Notes under the pieces: model-generated
Seen by the model: only the letters and a program-made list of their open reading frames with translations
Databases searched by the model: none
Told to the model about the DNA's origin: nothing
Translations under genes and position numbers: made by a program
Part shown: piece by piece, positions 32,574 to 40,670 of the stretch
Numbering within the stretch: the first letter of the stretch is position 1
Layout: the number at the start of each line of letters is the position of its first letter
Assembly (NCBI GenBank): GCA_965228475.1
Contig: OZ245817.1
Location: forward strand, 928,001-992,000
Direction of reading: 5' to 3'
Source of the DNA: Myxococcota bacterium
Lineage (GTDB): Bacteria > Myxococcota_A > UBA9160 > JAFDDA01
DNA length: 64,000 nucleotides

Positions 32574-33436
32574 GCGGTGTGAGCGGCGACGTGCGGAGCG
32601 CGGTGGAAGCGGAAGTCGAGGGGGCGCCCTACGCCCGGCGCCTCGGCCTCGCGCTCGATGCCGCCCGGCCCGACGGGCTCCGCTTGACCCTCCCGTTCCA
32701 GACCGAGAACACGAACCCCGGCGACGTGCTCCACGGCGGGGTGGCGGCCTCGGTCTCCGCGATCGGCGCGCGCGCCGTGGCGCGGAGCGCCTTCGAAAGC
32801 GCGACGGCCCCGCTCGGCGTCGGCCAGATCCAGATCGCCTATCTCGCCGCCGCGAAGGGTGAGACGGTCGTGGCGGAGGCGCGTCTCCTGCGTCGCGGGA
32901 AGACGCTCTGCTTCGTCTCGGTCACCACGGCGACCGAGGACGGGAAGCCCATCGCCGAAGCGCTCGCCACGGTGGTCCTGCGGCCCGACGCCCCGGCCGA
33001 GCGCGCCTTCCCGGTGGCCGGCGACGACGGTGCGGCGGACCCCGGACCCATGGGGCCCCACGTGGTGAAGACGCCCTTCATGAGCCGGCTCGGCCTGCGC
33101 ATCGAGAACATGCAGGGCGGGCGTTCGCGCATCGTCCTCCCGGCAACGCCGGAGAACGGCGACGCCCAAGGTCGGGTCCACGACGGCGCGCTCCTGGCGC
33201 TGCTCGACACCACGGGCGCCATGGCGTCCTGGGCCGAGACGGGCCCGGGCGCGTACCGGGCTTCGACGCCGAGCCTCCAGGCCCAGATCGTCGCGCCCGT
33301 GCCCCCGGGCGATCTCGTCGCCTATGGCCGGCTCGTGCAGCGCGAGGGCGACTGCTTCTGGGCCGACGTCGAGGTCGCGGGCGGCGGCGGCGAGGGCGTC
33401 GCCCGCGGCACCGTGCTCTATCGGATCGTTCCGTGA
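32570..33436 (+). CDS. PaaI family thioesterase, tandem hotdog domains
   Basis: NPGDVLHGG and GRVHDGALLALLD, two hotdog repeats; GTGA coupling at both ends. Confidence 0.8.
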   Translation: MSGVSGDVRSAVEAEVEGAPYARRLGLALDAARPDGLRLTLPFQTENTNPGDVLHGGVAASVSAIGARAVARSAFESATAPLGVGQIQIAYLAAAKGETVVAEARLLRRGKTLCFVSVTTATEDGKPIAEALATVVLRPDAPAERAFPVAGDDGAADPGPMGPHVVKTPFMSRLGLRIENMQGGRSRIVLPATPENGDAQGRVHDGALLALLDTTGAMASWAETGPGAYRASTPSLQAQIVAPVPPGDLVAYGRLVQREGDCFWADVEVAGGGGEGVARGTVLYRIVP

Positions 33437-34062
33437 GCGGGTCTCCCGACCGCGACGAGACGCTCGACGTCGAGCTCGCGCGCATCGGCCGCCGCGTGCG
33501 GCGCTGGCGCGAGGAGCGCGGGCTCACGCTCCAGGAGCTCGCGGCGAAGAGCGGCCTCGCGACGAGCACCGTGCACAAGGTCGAGAGCGTCCAGATGGTG
33601 CCGAGCGTCGCGGTGATCCTGAAGCTCGCCCGGGGGCTCGGCCGCCCGCCCGGCGACCTCGTCCACGACGGCGGCGAGGCGCTCGAGGCGGTGCACCAGC
33701 GCGCGGCGGATCGTCACCCGCTGGGCGTCGAAGGGGCGATGGTGGTCGAGCGGCTCTCGGCGGATCTCTTCGAACCGGCGCTCGAGACCTGGCGCGTGAC
33801 GGTGCACCCCGGCGTTTCCTCCGGCGACGCCATCTCCTACGACGGCGAGGAGCTCGTCGTGATGGAGGAGGGGGTGCTCTCCTTCCGCGTCGGCGAGGCG
33901 ACCCACGAACTCGCCGCGGGCGACACGCTGCACTTCAAGGCCGACGCCCCCCACCGCTGGAAGAACGAGTCCTCGGCGCCGGCGCGTTTCCTGGTGACGG
34001 GCACCCTCGCGCGACGCTTCCGCGAGAGCATGGAGGGCGCCGTCGCGGCGATCGCGCGCTGA
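33433..34062 (+). CDS. XRE family HTH plus cupin transcriptional regulator
   Basis: RGLTLQELAAKSGL...KVE...PS HTH; GEE...EG...GDTLHF...PH.W.N cupin. Confidence 0.9.
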   Translation: MSGSPDRDETLDVELARIGRRVRRWREERGLTLQELAAKSGLATSTVHKVESVQMVPSVAVILKLARGLGRPPGDLVHDGGEALEAVHQRAADRHPLGVEGAMVVERLSADLFEPALETWRVTVHPGVSSGDAISYDGEELVVMEEGVLSFRVGEATHELAAGDTLHFKADAPHRWKNESSAPARFLVTGTLARRFRESMEGAVAAIAR

Positions 34063-34154
34063 GCGAAGCCCGGACCCGTGGCCCGTCCGGGGCGATGCCG
34101 GCCGGCTGCCGGCTCGCGCGCGGAGCGGACCGGTTTCGAGGTATCCTCTCCGCC

Positions 34155-35915
34155 ATGCCCGGACGCGCCCCGCTCTGCTGGATCGCCCTGCTTGCTGCGC
34201 TGTGGATGGCCCCTCCGGCCGCGGCCCAGGCGGTCGACGATGCGCTCCGGGAGCGGGTCGCCGAAGAAGGCCGCGTGATGGTGATCGTCGAGCTCGAGGA
34301 GCCGACGGTGCCCGAGGGCTGGATCGCCCGCCGCGCGGACCTCGACGGCCAGCGGCGCCGCGTCGCCACCCGCCAGATCGAGGCGATCTACGAGCTCGGC
34401 GGAACGGATGCCGGTCCGGTCCGTCCCTACGCACAGGTTCCGTTCCTCGCGGTGCCGGTCGGCCCCGAGGCCCTCGAGGCGCTCGCGCGCTCGCCGCGCG
34501 TACGCAGCGTTCGCGCATCCCGGGTCTTCGCACCGAGCCTCGCGGAGAGCCTGGAGATCATCCAGGCCGACCAGGCGCAAGCGATCGGGTTCGATGGAAC
34601 CGGGCAGACGGTCGTCGTTCTCGATACGGGGACGGACGGTGGCCATCAGAACTTCCCGCCCGGGAAGTTCGTCGATGAGGCCTGCTTCTCCGACGGCGCG
34701 ACCGCAGGCGGCGCTCCGCAGGGCGGCGGCTTCGGAGACTGTCCGGGGGGTGGCGACACGGCCTTCGGCCCCGCGGCCGCCGTGCCCTGCACCTACGCCG
34801 CTCACTGCTTCCATGGGACCCACGTGGCCGGCATCGCGGTCGGCTCCGGGCCGACCTTGCCCGGCGTGGCGCCCGGCGCAAGTCTGATCCCGATCCAGAT
34901 CGCCTCGGAGTTCCCGGGGTCGCACCCTTCCTGCGGCGGTTCGCCGTGCCCGCTCTCCTGGGAGCACGACACCGACGCGGCGCTTTCCTACGTCTACACG
35001 ACGTTGCGCCACTCCCACACGATCGCGTCGGTGAACCTCAGCCTGGGCGGCGCGGTCTACACTTCGGCCTGCGATGCCGCTTTCCCTGCGAAGAAGGCGA
35101 TCATCGACAACCTGCGCTCGGTCGGGATCGCGACGGTGATCGCGACGGGGAACAACGGTTGCTCCGGGGTCGGGTGTACCGACGCGATCTCCGCACCGAG
35201 CTGCATCTCCTCCGCCGTGAGCGTGAGCGCAACCCGGGACGAAACGGGCAACCCCGCAACCTTCGCCAACCGCGCCCCGTTCATGACGTTCTATGCACCG
35301 GGGCAGTCCATCCTGGCGCCTCAATACCAGACGGTCGATCAGTACCAGAACTCCTCGGGCACCTCGATGGCGGCGCCGCACATCGCTGGCGCCTGGGCCC
35401 TCCTTCAGCAGGCGGTGCCCGGAACGAGCGTCTCGTCCCTGGTGAGCGTTCTCGAGGCGACCGAGACCTACGCCAGCCCTGGCGCTGGCCGCCCGAACCT
35501 GCGCGATGCCCTCGGCCAGCTCGGCTACCCGGAGTGCGACGACGGGATCGACAACGACGGCGACGGCGCCGTCGACACGGCCGACCTCGGCTGCGACGAC
35601 GCGGCCGACCTGTTCGAGCGGTCCGACGCCCTCGCCTGTGACAACGGGCTCGACGACGACGGGGACGGCGAGATCGACCTGGCCGACCCGGGATGCGGAC
35701 ACCCGGGCTCCATCCGCGAAGACCCCGCCTGCGACGACGGGATCGACAACGACGGGGACGGCGGGATCGACTGGGACGGCTCGCCCGCGGACCCCGAGTG
35801 CCTCTCGGGCCACATCACCGCCGAGTCCCCGCCGGGCTGCGGGCTCGGCCCGGAGCTGGTCCTGCTGCTCCCCGCCCTGGCGGCCCGCTTCCGGCGACGG
35901 AAAAACATTTCCTAG
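34155..35915 (+). CDS. Secreted S8 (subtilisin-like) serine peptidase with Asp-rich Cys repeats and a C-terminal sorting signal
   Basis: Signal peptide; triad VVVLDTG / HGTHVAG / GTSMAAPH; three CDDGIDNDGDG-type repeats; ends GCGLGPELVLLLPALAARFRRRK. Confidence 0.92.
   Translation: MPGRAPLCWIALLAALWMAPPAAAQAVDDALRERVAEEGRVMVIVELEEPTVPEGWIARRADLDGQRRRVATRQIEAIYELGGTDAGPVRPYAQVPFLAVPVGPEALEALARSPRVRSVRASRVFAPSLAESLEIIQADQAQAIGFDGTGQTVVVLDTGTDGGHQNFPPGKFVDEACFSDGATAGGAPQGGGFGDCPGGGDTAFGPAAAVPCTYAAHCFHGTHVAGIAVGSGPTLPGVAPGASLIPIQIASEFPGSHPSCGGSPCPLSWEHDTDAALSYVYTTLRHSHTIASVNLSLGGAVYTSACDAAFPAKKAIIDNLRSVGIATVIATGNNGCSGVGCTDAISAPSCISSAVSVSATRDETGNPATFANRAPFMTFYAPGQSILAPQYQTVDQYQNSSGTSMAAPHIAGAWALLQQAVPGTSVSSLVSVLEATETYASPGAGRPNLRDALGQLGYPECDDGIDNDGDGAVDTADLGCDDAADLFERSDALACDNGLDDDGDGEIDLADPGCGHPGSIREDPACDDGIDNDGDGGIDWDGSPADPECLSGHITAESPPGCGLGPELVLLLPALAARFRRRKNIS
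35535..35801 (+). repeat. Three coding CD[DN]G[IL]D[ND]DGDG..D...D..C repeats (putative Ca-binding)
   Basis: TGCGACGACGGGATCGACAACGACGG recurs at about 35535 and 35730, with a variant at about 35637. Confidence 0.8.
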
Positions 35916-35958
35916 TCTGGGCAGCGGAATGCCTTCACGGGTGCGTGGGGCGGAATCC

Positions 35959-35971
35959 TAACTACCTGAAA
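35959..35971. promoter_or_regulatory. IHF-like binding site candidate
   Basis: TAACTACCTGAAA reads TTTCAGGTAGTTA on the minus strand versus WATCAANNNNTTR (2 mismatches); about 27 bp upstream of the sigma54 box. Confidence 0.45.
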
Positions 35972-35997
35972 ACAAAGGGATCTCGCCCTGAGCGGGC

Positions 35998-36012
35998 TGG
36001 CATCCATCTTGC
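35998..36012 (+). promoter_or_regulatory. Sigma54 (-24/-12) promoter
   Basis: TGGCAT-CCATC-TTGC versus consensus TGGCAC-N5-TTGC, with exact GG-N10-GC spacing. Confidence 0.75.
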
Positions 36013-36023
36013 GATGTAATGAG

Positions 36024-36103
36024 GCGTACTCGGGGACCGCGCGCCGAGGCCGCCACCCGCTGGGAAGGGGATCGTGGCCAGAGCGCGCGGTCCCTTCTCT
36101 TTT
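36024..36103 (+). ncRNA. Candidate sigma54-dependent small RNA 1 (about 80 nt hairpin)
   Basis: 12-bp perfect stem GGGACCGCGCGC (36033-36044) / GCGCGCGGTCCC (36083-36094) followed by TTCTCTTTT; no downstream + strand gene. Confidence 0.6.
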
Positions 36104-36174
36104 GGCCCCTGGGCCCCTCCGAGAGCTTTATTTGCGTGTTGACGAGGCTTTCTTGCCCGCGGCGTGACACTTCT

Positions 36175-36263
36175 GCCGGGCCGAAGCCACTTCTCTATGA
36201 CAACACAACATCCCCTTCCCAGGGAGGCCCGGATCCGCTTGCGGATTCGGGCCTTTATCTTTT
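36175..36263 (+). ncRNA. Candidate small RNA 2 (CA/CU-rich single-stranded region plus intrinsic terminator); 5' end uncertain
   Basis: ACTTCTCTATGACAACACAACATCCCCTTCCC followed by a terminator; TTGACG at 36139-36144 upstream. Confidence 0.55.
36225..36263 (+). terminator. Intrinsic terminator with CUUG tetraloop
   Basis: AGGCCCGGATCCG-CTTG-CGGATTCGGGCCT (13 bp, one G-U) then TTATCTTTT on the + strand. Confidence 0.8.
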
Positions 36264-36297
36264 CTGGGGAGCCTGACTGGCGGGCCTGCGATGCGGC

Positions 36298-37362
36298 TCA
36301 GTTGGCGAGGCCCGGCGCTTCCTCGGCCGCCTCGAGGGCGTCGAGGCGCGTCGTGTCGTCCCAGACCGGGATCTTCGCCTCGGCGAAGCGCTCGCGGCTC
36401 CGCTCCGTGACCGCCCCCACGCGGACGAGGGCCGGCATCATCAGCTCCCGGAAGGAGTGGATCTGTCCCGGCGGGAGCTCGGCCCGCAAACCGGCCGCCC
36501 CCGCTTCGAGGAGGCTCTTCAGGAAGTCCTTGGGCTCGATCCCGACCGTCGCGAGCATCTGCAGGAAGCCCGGGTCCGGCGCCCGCCGCCCCTGGCCCTT
36601 CGGGCCGCCCTGGGCGTCGCTCATGAGCTTCACCGCCTCGAAGGCGAAGTCCGCGATGTCCTCGCGGTCGTCCGCGTGCATCTGGGCGATGGCGTCGCTC
36701 ACGTAGACGTTGCCGAAGGCGACGTGCCGGGATTCGTCCTGGAGGACGTTGTGGGTGATCGTGCGCAGGAGGTCGCACGTCGTCGCCGCGCGCATGTTGT
36801 GGAAGGCGCCGAGGGCGAGCCCCTCGACCACCATGTTCATGCCGATCGCGATCTTCACCCAGTGGTCGGCCTGGAGCGTCACGTCGATCAGCTGCTTCAG
36901 CCAGGGCGAGATCGGGTAGACGACGGCGAGCTTGTTGATGTAGCGCTCGTAGACCTCGACGTGGCGGGCCTCGTCCATGGTCTGGGTCGCGGCGTACAGC
37001 TTGGCCTCGTAGTCCGGGACGGCGTGGGTGAGGGCGGCTGCGGTCATGAGCGCCCCCTGCTCGCCGTGCAGGAACTGCGAGAGCAGGTGGCAGGACATGT
37101 GCGCCGTGAAGGCCTCCCGCTGGGAGGGGGAGAGCGCCTGGATCACCGAGAGCCGGTCGAACAGGAACTGGCTCTCGTCGAGGATCGGCTTCGAGGGGTC
37201 GACCTCGGTGTCCCAGGCGATGTCGCGTGCCGCGTCCCACTGGTGGTTCTTGGCCTTGGTGTAGAGGTTGCGGAGCTTGTCGATGTCGATCGCGTAGTCG
37301 AACTGCCAGCAGACCTCCATCGGGGTCTTCAGGATGTCCGCCGTCTGCCAGTTGGTCGCCAC
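36298..37362 (-). CDS. Ferritin-like diiron protein (AurF-like oxygenase family)
   Basis: QFLHGEQGAL, DEARH, VEGLAL, DESRH diiron motifs. Confidence 0.85.
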   Translation of the reverse strand: MATNWQTADILKTPMEVCWQFDYAIDIDKLRNLYTKAKNHQWDAARDIAWDTEVDPSKPILDESQFLFDRLSVIQALSPSQREAFTAHMSCHLLSQFLHGEQGALMTAAALTHAVPDYEAKLYAATQTMDEARHVEVYERYINKLAVVYPISPWLKQLIDVTLQADHWVKIAIGMNMVVEGLALGAFHNMRAATTCDLLRTITHNVLQDESRHVAFGNVYVSDAIAQMHADDREDIADFAFEAVKLMSDAQGGPKGQGRRAPDPGFLQMLATVGIEPKDFLKSLLEAGAAGLRAELPPGQIHSFRELMMPALVRVGAVTERSRERFAEAKIPVWDDTTRLDALEAAEEAPGLAN

Positions 37363-37405
37363 GGGAGGCCTCCACGAGGCCGTCTCCGGGACGCCTCCAT
37401 CGAGT

Positions 37406-37419
37406 TGAACGCCCGTTCA
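37406..37419. promoter_or_regulatory. Perfect palindromic operator TGAACG-CC-CGTTCA abutting the -10 (TAGAAT, minus strand 37424-37419)
   Basis: 6+2+6 inverted repeat at the predicted transcription start of the diiron gene; TetR-like geometry. Confidence 0.6.
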
Positions 37420-37640
37420 TTCTACCGGCGCGGGGAGGGCCGGAGGAAGCCCGCTTTCGGGGGCAAAACGACGCGCAAGAACGGCCCGCCCGAGCCGCAG
37501 GAAGGACCCGCATCCCGCCATTTTCGCGGGGTTCCCGTGCGGACGGGGCGTTATCCTAACGGCCCGCCGGGGCGCTACCCTGGCAGGCCGCAGCGCCGGA
37601 TCACCGGCCGCCGCGGGAACGCGACCAGGAGGCAAAGCGA

Positions 37641-38936: not shown

Positions 38937-39635
38937 CTAGGCGGTGAGCTTGCGCCGCCCGATGGCCGCCGCGGCGACGACCAGCACGCCGAGGCCCATC
39001 AGGCGCGCACTGTTCGGCTCCGGGATCACGCCCTCGCCGACGAAGACGAAGTCGGCCTTGAGCACGAGGTTGTCGGCGCCCGCTCCCACGATGCCGAGGT
39101 CCGCCGGCGAGATCTCGCCGATCGTCACGCCCTGAAGGAAGAGGGCCGACGCCACCGTGTCGAGGGAGATGAAGCCCGAGCCGTCGGTGTCGGTCGAGAT
39201 GGCGAGGTCGTCGATCACCTGGCCCCCGCCGTTCGACGCGTCGAGGTTGGCCGAGAAGTTCAGCGGATCGATCTGGTAGCTGTAGAGGTCCGGCGGGCCC
39301 GCCATGAGCAGGTTGAGCGCGCCCGGGCCGCCCGAGAGCGAGAGGTCCGTCAGGGTCATCGCCGTCAGGCCGAGGTAGCCGGGCGTGAGGGTGATGTCGA
39401 CGGGGCCGCTCGAGGTGAGGTCGAGGTCGTTCAGGACGCCGGCCTCGGCGTCGATCGTGACGCTCGAGCCGTCGAGCTGGGCCAGGTTCGAGAGCCCGAG
39501 CACCGAAGCGCCGGTGCTGGCCTCGACCCGGATCTGGCCGCTCTGGAAGACGTAGGTCATCGGAGCGGCCGTCGCGGTACCCGCGGCCACCACAAGGGCC
39601 AGGGCCATCGACCAGCTCATCGTGCGAATCTGCAT
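38937..39635 (-). CDS. PEP-CTERM sorting domain-containing surface protein
   Basis: Signal peptide; C-terminal IPEPNSARLMGLGVLVVAAAAIGRRK. Confidence 0.85.
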   Translation of the reverse strand: MQIRTMSWSMALALVVAAGTATAAPMTYVFQSGQIRVEASTGASVLGLSNLAQLDGSSVTIDAEAGVLNDLDLTSSGPVDITLTPGYLGLTAMTLTDLSLSGGPGALNLLMAGPPDLYSYQIDPLNFSANLDASNGGGQVIDDLAISTDTDGSGFISLDTVASALFLQGVTIGEISPADLGIVGAGADNLVLKADFVFVGEGVIPEPNSARLMGLGVLVVAAAAIGRRKLTA

Positions 39636-39695: not shown

Positions 39696-40340
39696 CTAGT
39701 TCAACGCCTTGCGGCGAGCGTACGCGAGGCCGAGGAGCCCCACCGTGAGCCCCATCACCGAAGCGCCGGGCTCCGGGACGGTGGCCGTCAGGTCGATCGT
39801 GTGGGGCACGTAGCGGGTCTCGGTGTTCGAGATGTCGATCGGGAAGGTCAGGCCCGCGATGATCACGCCGCACTTGTAGACGCTGACCGCCGTCTCCTCG
39901 CAGTCGACGTCGATGGCCGGGGCGAGGTTCAGCGGGACCGGGACCGTCAGGATCGTCGGCCCGAAGAGCTGGTAGTTCCCCACCGCCGTGCCGATGCCCG
40001 CGCCGTTGAAGTCCGTGAGCGAACCGTTGTGGGCGAAGCTCGCGGTGTAGGTGACGTCCTGGAAGGCGATCGAGCCGACCACTCCATCGAGACCGGCGAT
40101 CGTGGCGATGGACCAGAGCGGAATCTCGAGGGCAACGTCGATCGTGGCACCGTCCGTCGTGATCGTGCCGAGCACGTTCCCACCGGCGTTGAGCTCGTAC
40201 AACTGCGTGAAGCAGAAGGCGTCGGAGCAGCCTTGGGCGAGGTCCACGGAGCCTCCGGTCACGTTGAGAGTCAGCGCCTTCGCACTACCGGGTGCGATCA
40301 GCAACAGCGAGAGCAAGAGCAGGGAGCGCTTCCCGTGCAT
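39696..40340 (-). CDS. PEP-CTERM sorting domain-containing surface protein
   Basis: Signal peptide (MHGKRSLLLLSLLL...AKA); C-terminal VPEPGASVMGLTVGLLGLAYARRK. Confidence 0.85.
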   Translation of the reverse strand: MHGKRSLLLLSLLLIAPGSAKALTLNVTGGSVDLAQGCSDAFCFTQLYELNAGGNVLGTITTDGATIDVALEIPLWSIATIAGLDGVVGSIAFQDVTYTASFAHNGSLTDFNGAGIGTAVGNYQLFGPTILTVPVPLNLAPAIDVDCEETAVSVYKCGVIIAGLTFPIDISNTETRYVPHTIDLTATVPEPGASVMGLTVGLLGLAYARRKALN

Positions 40341-40670
40341 CGTCGTATTCCACCTTCGGCTGCCACGCCAAAGGCTCGATCGCACAGGAACGCGAAGAGA
40401 CCGCTGGCGCAGTCCCCTTCCCGTTGGATGTAGGTGATCTTACGACGGGGGTTGGTGACTGTAAACCGCTGAAAATCGCAAACTTTTTCGTTTTTTTGTG
40501 GGTAGCGGGCTTCCACTTCTCGGCAGCGCGCTACCCACCCCACGGGCAACACACCGGCAGTCGCTCGACTCCCCGCGGGGAAGCGCGGGCCGCGAGGGAA
40601 CATCCTTGACGCCGGCCCGCGGAAGCCGCTTTTTTCACCGCCCGTGGCGCGAGCCACGTCAGGGGAGGGC

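Follow-up and report, generated by a model that had tools for sequence, protein, structure and literature searches.

The DNA analysed here, referred to as the window, is a stretch of 64,000 nucleotides from a Myxococcota bacterium (GenBank assembly GCA_965228475.1, contig OZ245817.1, positions 928,001 to 992,000 of the forward strand). Within it, a peptidase gene of the Pfam family Peptidase_S8 and a gene for an AurF-like di-iron oxygenase converge, and the 382-bp gap between their stop codons carries two candidate small RNAs (sRNAs) on the plus strand. We call the upstream one RNA1 and the downstream one RNA2; RNA1 contains a 13-nucleotide (nt) sequence, here termed the anti-seed, that is complementary to a C/U-rich seed in RNA2. 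The seed is also complementary to GGGAAGGGG(A) or GGGAAGGGG(A/U) in the leaders of mRNAs for PEP-CTERM proteins. With evenly balanced confidence, we read the gap as a predicted sRNA, RNA2, together with a decoy, RNA1, that is embedded in the regulon of the sRNA's targets.

A preliminary description of the gap, made from its letters, had placed it between two 3′ ends, and both stop codons lie where that description requires. Its sigma54 box, with GG and GC at canonical spacing, its two hairpins with U/T-rich tails and its CA/CU-rich tract were likewise recovered (Table 1). Two of its elements fared less well: TTGACG (36140-36145) is there, yet the sister genome does not share it, the family's conserved boxes being TGACAC and CCACTT, and the proposed IHF-like site is weak, with the consensus WATCAANNNNTTR matched once in 35916-35997, at two mismatches. 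The complementarity that it had reported is exact, CTGGGAAGGGGAT in RNA1 (36060-36072) being the reverse complement of ATCCCCTTCCCAG in RNA2 (36210-36222), and an inverted match of 13 nt separated by at least 20 nt arose in only 4 of 2000 approximately dinucleotide-preserving shuffles of the gap. A 261-nt region was more stable than each of 200 shuffles (z = -4.45), and the minimum-energy fold of the whole region consists of two separate hairpins with anti-seed and seed unpaired. Upstream of the sigma54 box, the activator-type palindrome GGAAAAACATTTCC overlaps the final codons of the S8 peptidase gene.

As the preliminary description had supposed, the pair corresponds to no described family: Rfam 15 gave no match at gathering thresholds in the whole window, and with permissive filters over 35000-37500 nothing overlapped RNA1. 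The top match in the gap, to AgvB, is sub-threshold (22.6 bits against a gathering score of 56, E = 0.27) and covers the CA-rich tract of RNA2; it is a chance resemblance of that tract. An 85-aa open reading frame (36019-36276) was rejected as coding because its conserved parts are the RNA2 nucleotides, which are identical without synonymous variation, and because length differences in the 5′ part of the family are not multiples of three.

Table 1. Positions of the genes, promoter elements and predicted RNAs in the window
Feature	Position	Strand	Remarks
Convergent gap	35916-36297		between stop codons of S8 peptidase and AurF-like gene
S8 peptidase gene (Pfam Peptidase_S8)	33324-35915	+	stop borders gap
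AurF-like di-iron oxygenase gene	36298-37362	-	stop borders gap
Activator-type palindrome GGAAAAACATTTCC (GGAA-N6-TTCC)	35899-35912	+	99 nt upstream of sigma54 box
Sigma54-type promoter TGGCATCCATCTTGCG	35998-36013	+	-24 GG, -12 GC, canonical spacing
RNA1, candidate decoy, ~82 nt	~36024-36105	+	start placed from canonical -12 position
RNA1 hairpin, long, GC-rich	36032-36094	+	from fold; followed by U-rich tail TTCTCTTTT / UUCUCUUUU
RNA1 anti-seed CTGGGAAGGGGAT / CUGGGAAGGGGAU	36060-36072	+	weakly paired apical part of hairpin
RNA2 promoter-like boxes	TGACAC 36165-36170, CCACTT 36187-36192	+	16 nt apart; A/T-rich tract upstream
RNA2, conserved predicted sRNA, ~68 nt	~36198-36265	+	ends placed from boxes and terminator
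RNA2 seed AUCCCCUUCCCAGGGAG	36210-36226	+	3′ of CA-rich 5′ end
RNA2 terminator stem-loop, 15 pairs	36223-36256	+	followed by T-rich/U-rich run
Seed-complementary GGGAAGGGGA	40413-40422	-	leader of PEP-CTERM gene 39696-40340 (-), ~73 nt before ATG

Conservation of the gap was followed from the window's own genome (G000, a single contig, 96% complete) through the only congeneric genome (G001, genus g1) and the sister genus (G002) to the wider phylum. A BLAST search with the gap matched 38 of 61 related genomes, nearly all at query positions ~240-354, which correspond to RNA2. G000 itself has a second RNA2 copy elsewhere, the window copy being the extra one. Of 401 genomes sampled from the phylum, 39 carry an exact 20-nt core of RNA2, every one of them in the window's order (39/64), with no match in 14 genomes of the sister order, in 323 elsewhere in the phylum or in the control; since this restriction to the order was tested by an exact 20-mer, diverged relatives could have been missed. 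Among species-level public genomes, at least 120 stretches carry the exact core, nearly all labelled as metagenome-assembled genomes of Myxococcota or Deltaproteobacteria, and a few matches within coding regions of other phyla look like chance.

The copies share one layout, which runs 5′ to 3′ from an A/T-rich tract through two boxes and a variable CA-rich stretch to an invariant AUCCCCUUCCCAGGGAG that leads into GGCCCG, a stem-loop and a U-rich tail. All 31 aligned copies have the seed unchanged, and the 24 invariant columns of that alignment include seed positions 29 and 31-42. By contrast, the stem-loop 3′ of the seed varies in sequence and keeps its pairing: RNAalifold reported compensatory changes in 8 of 16 pairs, and in 126 covariance-model matches, aligned by fitting to that model, the terminator helix has both-sided changes at 9 of 12 pairs. 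In all, 96% of terminator cells are paired, against 80.6% in shuffles (none of 500 reached the observed value) and at most 51% in slid controls. Covariation, which the preliminary description had named as a check for both stems and for the 13-nt duplex, is seen in the RNA2 terminator, the RNA1 stems and the duplex being compared in one genome pair (G000/G001). Some genomes carry tandem arrays of two to four RNA2 copies; the loci L057, L129, L073, L104 and L062 have three to four at ~165-185 nt spacing, and some extra copies in such arrays are too diverged for the exact core pattern.

Because of its order-wide conservation, invariant seed, covarying terminator and own conserved promoter-like boxes, RNA2 is strongly supported as a base-pairing sRNA with a C/U-rich seed beside its terminator, as the preliminary description had held. 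By the same sequence evidence, it represents a genuine, uncatalogued and strongly conserved sRNA family. At the sequence level, the boxes and the intrinsic terminator fit an independent transcription unit. Both boxes are found in 107 of 129 unique core-carrying copies, spaced by 15-19 nt (16 or 17 in 104 of them); the first reads TGACAC, CGCCAC or TGCCAC and the second CCACTT. A low-depth contig of a close relative (run X4) differs from the window at 36017, 36020, 36022 and 36140 and has 36272-36330 replaced; its RNA1 hairpin and RNA2 are without differences, which at depth 2 is only a hint. None of the sequencing runs recorded as RNA carried the stretch, and contigs from the four best-matching runs were DNA-like.

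The usual RNA2 copy lies on the same strand and 3′ of an operon for an extracytoplasmic function (ECF) sigma factor, an anti-sigma factor and a ~166-aa secreted protein (22 of 30 loci, from different genomes). Upstream of the ECF sigma gene, CGAATA-N16/17-CGTC was read by eye in 11 of 15 genomes, and it is also present in G000. Dependence of RNA2 on the adjacent ECF sigma factor is not supported, since TGACAC-N16-CCACTT differs from this element; the RNA2 boxes are also unlike a sigma70-like TTTACA-N17-TAAGAT promoter in the window (40462-40434). A loose RNA2-box pattern, applied to look for a regulon with the same boxes, found 24 sites in G000 against ~48 by a rough, hand-made order-0 estimate, so that there is no enrichment.

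Several further observations concern this neighbourhood. The ~166-aa secreted protein (L031:1715-2215, -) is without Pfam or NCBIfam match and its gene adjoins the anti-sigma gene in 21 of 30 loci. A conserved CGAATA-N16/17-CGTC(G/C)AA stands directly after the polA stop and before the ECF sigma cluster (G000:C1 ~4272700-4272860, -; L169-L183). In many genomes (L003-L031), the stop of the 166-aa gene and the sRNA boxes have between them a short CCCC-N3-4-GGGG hairpin with an A-rich tract behind it; the hairpin could be part of the 3′ end of the operon or a UP-like element. Elsewhere in G000 (C1:4120897, +), the boxes TGACAC-N16-CCACAT precede a short hairpin that has a T run behind it (GGAGGCCCCTCCCTGGTGGGGCTTTTC), a sequence arrangement that may mark another small RNA with an RNA2-type promoter.

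RNA1 is built differently. Its promoter combines an enhancer palindrome at -99 with a sigma54 box, as in the predicted target mRNAs described below, and its target motif is displayed atop a terminator hairpin closed by a GC-rich stem. RNA1 is single copy in G000. In G001, the gene order is conserved (S8 peptidase, RNA1, RNA2 and, on the opposite strand, the AurF-like gene), as are the sigma54 box (TGGCTCCCTACTTGCG), the palindrome with one mismatch, the U tail and the lower end of the stem; elsewhere the spacer is for the most part unalignable. A 15-nt block containing the anti-seed (CCGCTGGGAAGGGGA) is identical in the two genomes, and the flanking stem arms differ yet still pair, the upper stem of G001 using quite different sequence. 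In this one congeneric genome, with its diverged stems, the complementarity to the RNA2 seed extends over 12 of 13 nt.

Units resembling RNA1 also occur in G012 and G015, where a palindrome, a sigma54 box, one or more hairpins exposing CCUGGGAAGGGG and a U tail are unlinked to any RNA2 copy. The palindrome lies upstream of the related units L155, L152, L157, L158 and L160 and, with one mismatch, of L153, and the longest complement to the seed reaches 16 nt of Watson-Crick pairs (L156). At the RNA1 side of the gap, the C-terminus of the S8 peptidase (35850-35915, +; L153:3-239) carries a motif with a Cys residue, then a hydrophobic span and a cluster RRRK, a tail type that is also present in G001 and G002 and resembles the Myxococcales 'MYXO-CTERM' sorting signal.

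What ties the two RNAs to a common set of genes is the occurrence of the anti-seed motif in PEP-CTERM leaders. Targets were predicted from simple duplex energies, with gene starts placed crudely and a background of 4000 random 100-nt windows (mean -15.4, 1% point -25.2 kcal/mol). In G000, duplexes at or below -25.2 kcal/mol were predicted for 12 of 55 PEP-CTERM-like genes and for 63 of 3034 control open reading frames, these being secreted-like frames picked by the same signal-peptide rule with crudely assigned start sites (Fisher p = 3e-9). PEP-CTERM tails (PEP motif, hydrophobic span, basic cluster) were recognized by regular expression and by eye, not by the TIGR02595 model. The window contains two PEP-CTERM-type genes, at 38937-39635 (-) and 39696-40340 (-), 3-4 kb from the RNA pair. 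For the latter, the predicted duplex with RNA2 is -27.0 kcal/mol, beyond the 1% cut-off, and its leader carries GGGAAGGGGA 3′ of the sigma70-like promoter mentioned above, which is accompanied by an A-tract.

Promoter architecture leads to the same genes. A GGAA-N5-8-TTCC palindrome lies within 200 nt upstream of 15 of the 152 TGGC-N7-TTGC sigma54-like boxes in G000, against ~1.7 expected at random positions and 1 of 169 reversed-pattern sites. Of these 15 sites, seven stand before PEP-CTERM genes and another is the promoter of RNA1. The predicted duplexes of the RNA2 5′ part with the seven PEP-CTERM leaders are -34.4, -28.6, -27.6, -27.4, -22.6, -20.1 and -14.3 kcal/mol. A non-PEP-CTERM protein (C-terminus ...ADLLEYE...) is also encoded behind a sigma54 box (G000:C1:1746498, +; L219, L220), and in G110 and G111 its leader carries GGGAAGGGG; from these sequences, its gene may be another member of the regulon.

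The association extends across the order. A sigma54 box followed by N30-60 and TGGGAAGGGG was found in 9 of 193 genomes of the order and not in the reversed control, and the nine matches comprise four RNA1-like units without a coding sequence (CDS), four PEP-CTERM leaders and one intragenic site. In five other genomes, 6 of 20 matches to GGGAAGGGGA-N2-12-ATG start PEP-CTERM genes. A sigma54 box followed by N12-42 and GGGAAGGGG was matched 36 times, in 28 of 112 genomes, compared with 4 times in the control, and the next gene encodes a PEP-CTERM protein in 17-19 of 30 loci examined; the same pattern gave 0 of 32 in the sister order, which is without the sRNA. Within the order, such leaders occur in 11 of 38 sRNA-positive and 0 of 20 sRNA-negative genomes (p = 0.01), a comparison of hand-collated lists in which related genomes are not independent. 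The pairing signal is specific to PEP-CTERM leaders and not genome-wide.

This arrangement agrees with what is known of PEP-CTERM genes, which Haft et al. (2006, PMC1569441) describe as typically standing alone in single-gene units, each with a long leader preceded by an activator site and a sigma54 promoter. Rajeev et al. (2011, PMC3333781) found a sigma54-dependent response regulator bound upstream of such genes in Desulfovibrio vulgaris, and passages of that paper mention PEP-CTERM and sRNA separately. Two EpsH-family exosortases exceed their cut-off in G000, which also encodes ~20 NtrC-type activators. PrsR was rejected as the activator: no G000 protein reaches the curated cut-off of TIGR02915, the best NtrC-type protein scoring 418.5 against 502.6 bits. 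Neither the RNA2 family nor an sRNA acting on PEP-CTERM genes was found described in the openly accessible literature, subscription journals and supplements lying outside the search. The predicted link of RNA2 to PEP-CTERM leaders, as read from sequence, is new; the sRNA-plus-sponge kind is already known, and these members and their regulon are additions to it.

The predicted interaction between the two RNAs is strong by the same energy measure. The RNA1-RNA2 duplex is -32.7 kcal/mol, in the top 0.03% of the background. Its 13-bp core hybrid is -25.0 kcal/mol, and after subtraction of the costs of opening RNA1 (8.5) and the RNA2 seed (2.7) the net energy is -13.8 kcal/mol; corresponding values are -9.7 in G001, -8.2 in G012 and -10.2 kcal/mol in G015, the last paired with the G000 RNA2. 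Hybrid and opening energies replaced RNAcofold, which has no means of representing a closed loop paired to another RNA. In this model, RNA1 shows the extended complementarity to the seed and the favourable net energy of a sponge.

From sequence features, conservation, covariation and statistical enrichment, we infer that both RNAs are transcribed, that they pair in the cell with a particular direction of effect and that RNA1 titrates RNA2. RNA2 would be made as a short transcript from its own promoter, with the C/U-rich seed in a single-stranded 5′ part and an intrinsic terminator behind it. Pairing of this seed with the purine-rich GGGAAGGGG(A/U) in PEP-CTERM leaders would take place either where the leader starts or over the ribosome-binding site, and would most likely lower translation or stability of the target. 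For many target mRNAs, transcription would start at sigma54 promoters governed by a GGAA-N6-TTCC enhancer site, and RNA1, with the same type of enhancer and sigma54 promoter, would consist of little beyond a stable terminator hairpin with the purine-rich element at its top. The enhancer-binding activator that turns on PEP-CTERM genes would therefore co-induce RNA1, which would bind RNA2 and leave less of it free. Since RNA1 combines a target-type sigma54 promoter with the same pairing site, a sigma54-driven decoy is the most economical reading of its sequence, to which we give about even odds. In a wider proposal, the PEP-CTERM/exosortase surface proteome is under RNA control throughout the order: a near-invariant sRNA, tied to an ECF sigma operon, would hold back sigma54-activated PEP-CTERM mRNAs by way of their common leader motif, and some lineages would have turned a PEP-CTERM promoter and leader into a decoy that is induced along with the targets and neutralises the sRNA, forming a threshold or feed-forward switch. 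This proposal we regard as possible and somewhat less than probable.

Several results weigh against RNA1 as a decoy in such a regulon. RNA1 stands beside RNA2 only in genus g1 (G000 and G001), so that its conservation test amounts to one genome pair, and at the same locus of G002 RNA2 comes directly after the S8 gene, RNA1 having been gained in g1 or lost in G002. The RNA2 core was not found in the 88%-complete assembly of G015 despite the RNA1-like unit there, and the G012 unit precedes a same-strand aldo/keto reductase gene, of which it could be the leader. The anti-seed is enclosed in a very stable hairpin, where a 13-bp helix formed in a closed loop would be topologically strained, and pseudoknot-free co-folding, the check named in the preliminary description, gains a marginal -4.3 (G000) and -0.8 kcal/mol (G001) over separate folds, set against the favourable net hybrid energy given above. 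Counted over the whole of G000, 10-nt anti-seed matches show no enrichment (105 found, 149 expected). Hfq (PF17209) has no match in the 96%-complete, single-contig G000, by which measure RNA2 does not qualify as an Hfq-dependent sRNA. In many leaders, moreover, a constant 14-17 nt separates the promoter from the motif, which sits at the very start of the mRNA and not at the ribosome-binding site; the motif may thus have another role, for example as a promoter-proximal or protein-binding element, and RNA2, for its part, could act on translation or on stability from the 5′ end. The decoy under sigma54 and enhancer control that had been proposed at the outset is consistent with these data and gains support from the palindrome and promoter shared with the targets, the anti-seed kept in G001 and the analogous units in two other families; the adjacency of candidate decoy and sRNA is seen in g1 alone.

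Three alternatives stand beside the decoy. RNA1 could be a relic, left over from a PEP-CTERM gene that was lost but for its promoter and leader, now serving at most as a terminator of the S8 mRNA, with a match to RNA2 that was inherited from the target leader and has no regulatory use; RNA2 would still be a genuine sRNA. RNA1 does have the exact promoter architecture and motif of PEP-CTERM leaders, its restriction to one genus and absence from the G002 locus would suit such an origin, and its hairpin lies ~117 nt 3′ of the S8 stop, no other terminator for the S8 gene having been found. A relic, however, is not expected to retain its promoter and to enclose the motif in a new terminator hairpin, and in G001 the palindrome, sigma54 box, 15-nt anti-seed block, stem pairing and U tail have all been kept despite divergence of the spacer. 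Similar units without a CDS in G015, and possibly in G012, also argue for use, and we consider the relic unlikely.

Transcription might instead run from the sigma54 promoter through both elements, the anti-seed then masking the RNA2 seed in cis within a self-inhibited precursor or attenuator, the latter being the alternative that the preliminary description had offered. RNA2 retains the promoter-like boxes that the family's 107 box-bearing copies have without an upstream RNA1, the G012 and G015 units are unlinked to any RNA2, and the minimum-energy fold keeps the hairpins separate and does not place the anti-seed on the seed. A single read-through transcript accordingly appears improbable to us, even though the two elements lie on the same strand 150 nt apart, the 261-nt region folds beyond all 200 shuffles, and the U tail of RNA1 is interrupted (UUCUCUUUU), so that termination there may leak. 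It is more improbable still that complementarity is secondary and that GGGAAGGGG in RNA1 and PEP-CTERM leaders and CAGGGA in RNA2 are binding sites for a protein such as CsrA. CsrA recognizes GGA motifs, both those in loops and those at ribosome-binding sites, G000 has a CsrA gene (84.1 bits) and no detected Hfq, and the motif keeps a fixed distance to many sigma54 promoters, which suggests that it does more than pair; but each RNA offers a single site, against many in known CsrA sponges, a perfect complement of 13 nt (RNA1) and up to 16 nt (L156) to an invariant seed would not be needed for protein binding, and motif and sRNA co-occur phyletically.

The predicted RNA1 decoy has counterparts among studied regulators, with which it shares logic and not sequence. 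One is the ChiX/chbBC decoy of Salmonella and E. coli, in which a target-like decoy induced by the signal of the pathway titrates a steadily made sRNA and relieves repression. There the decoy is part of an mRNA, whereas RNA1 would be a non-coding hairpin RNA dedicated to this role, under a sigma54 promoter of its own; the predicted targets here form a large paralogous PEP-CTERM family. QrrX, which acts on the Vibrio Qrr sRNAs, and AgvB and SroC, which act on GcvB, are likewise separate small RNAs complementary to the seed of one sRNA. In Vibrio, the sRNAs are sigma54-dependent, whereas here the sponge candidate has the sigma54-type promoter and the sRNA does not, and neither RNA1 nor RNA2 is related in sequence to QrrX or AgvB.

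RNA2 in turn resembles the sigmaE sRNAs MicA, RybB and MicL, which are short, with a 5′ seed and a terminator, and act on many mRNAs of exported envelope proteins; the tie of the usual RNA2 copy to an ECF sigma/anti-sigma operon adds to the likeness. The RNA2 boxes, however, are unlike the ECF sigma's own promoter, and these comparisons are drawn in a genome in which Hfq was not found. The predicted regulon as a whole resembles the PrsK/PrsR PEP-CTERM system presented in PMC1569441, with single-gene units, long leaders, an activator site and a -24/-12 promoter, and with two exosortases in G000. It differs in that no G000 protein reaches the PrsR cut-off and in its activator motif, GGAA-N6-TTCC; for that system, too, an RNA layer was not found described in the literature that was open to search.

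PEP-CTERM proteins and exosortases are widespread in bacteria of sediments, soils and biofilms, and their regulation has so far meant a sigma54 activator, with the long leaders left without explanation. If the reading of RNA2 as their regulator is true, it would add a post-transcriptional layer to PEP-CTERM genes, in which one 17-nt seed faces dozens of mRNAs in a testable way, and it would explain the long leaders noted in 2006. To our knowledge, only Pxr is well known among riboregulators of Myxococcota, and RNA2 would be the second to be studied in this phylum. RNA1 would be a natural sponge gene that follows the promoter logic of its sRNA's targets and seemingly derives from a target leader, with an origin that can be read from genomes.

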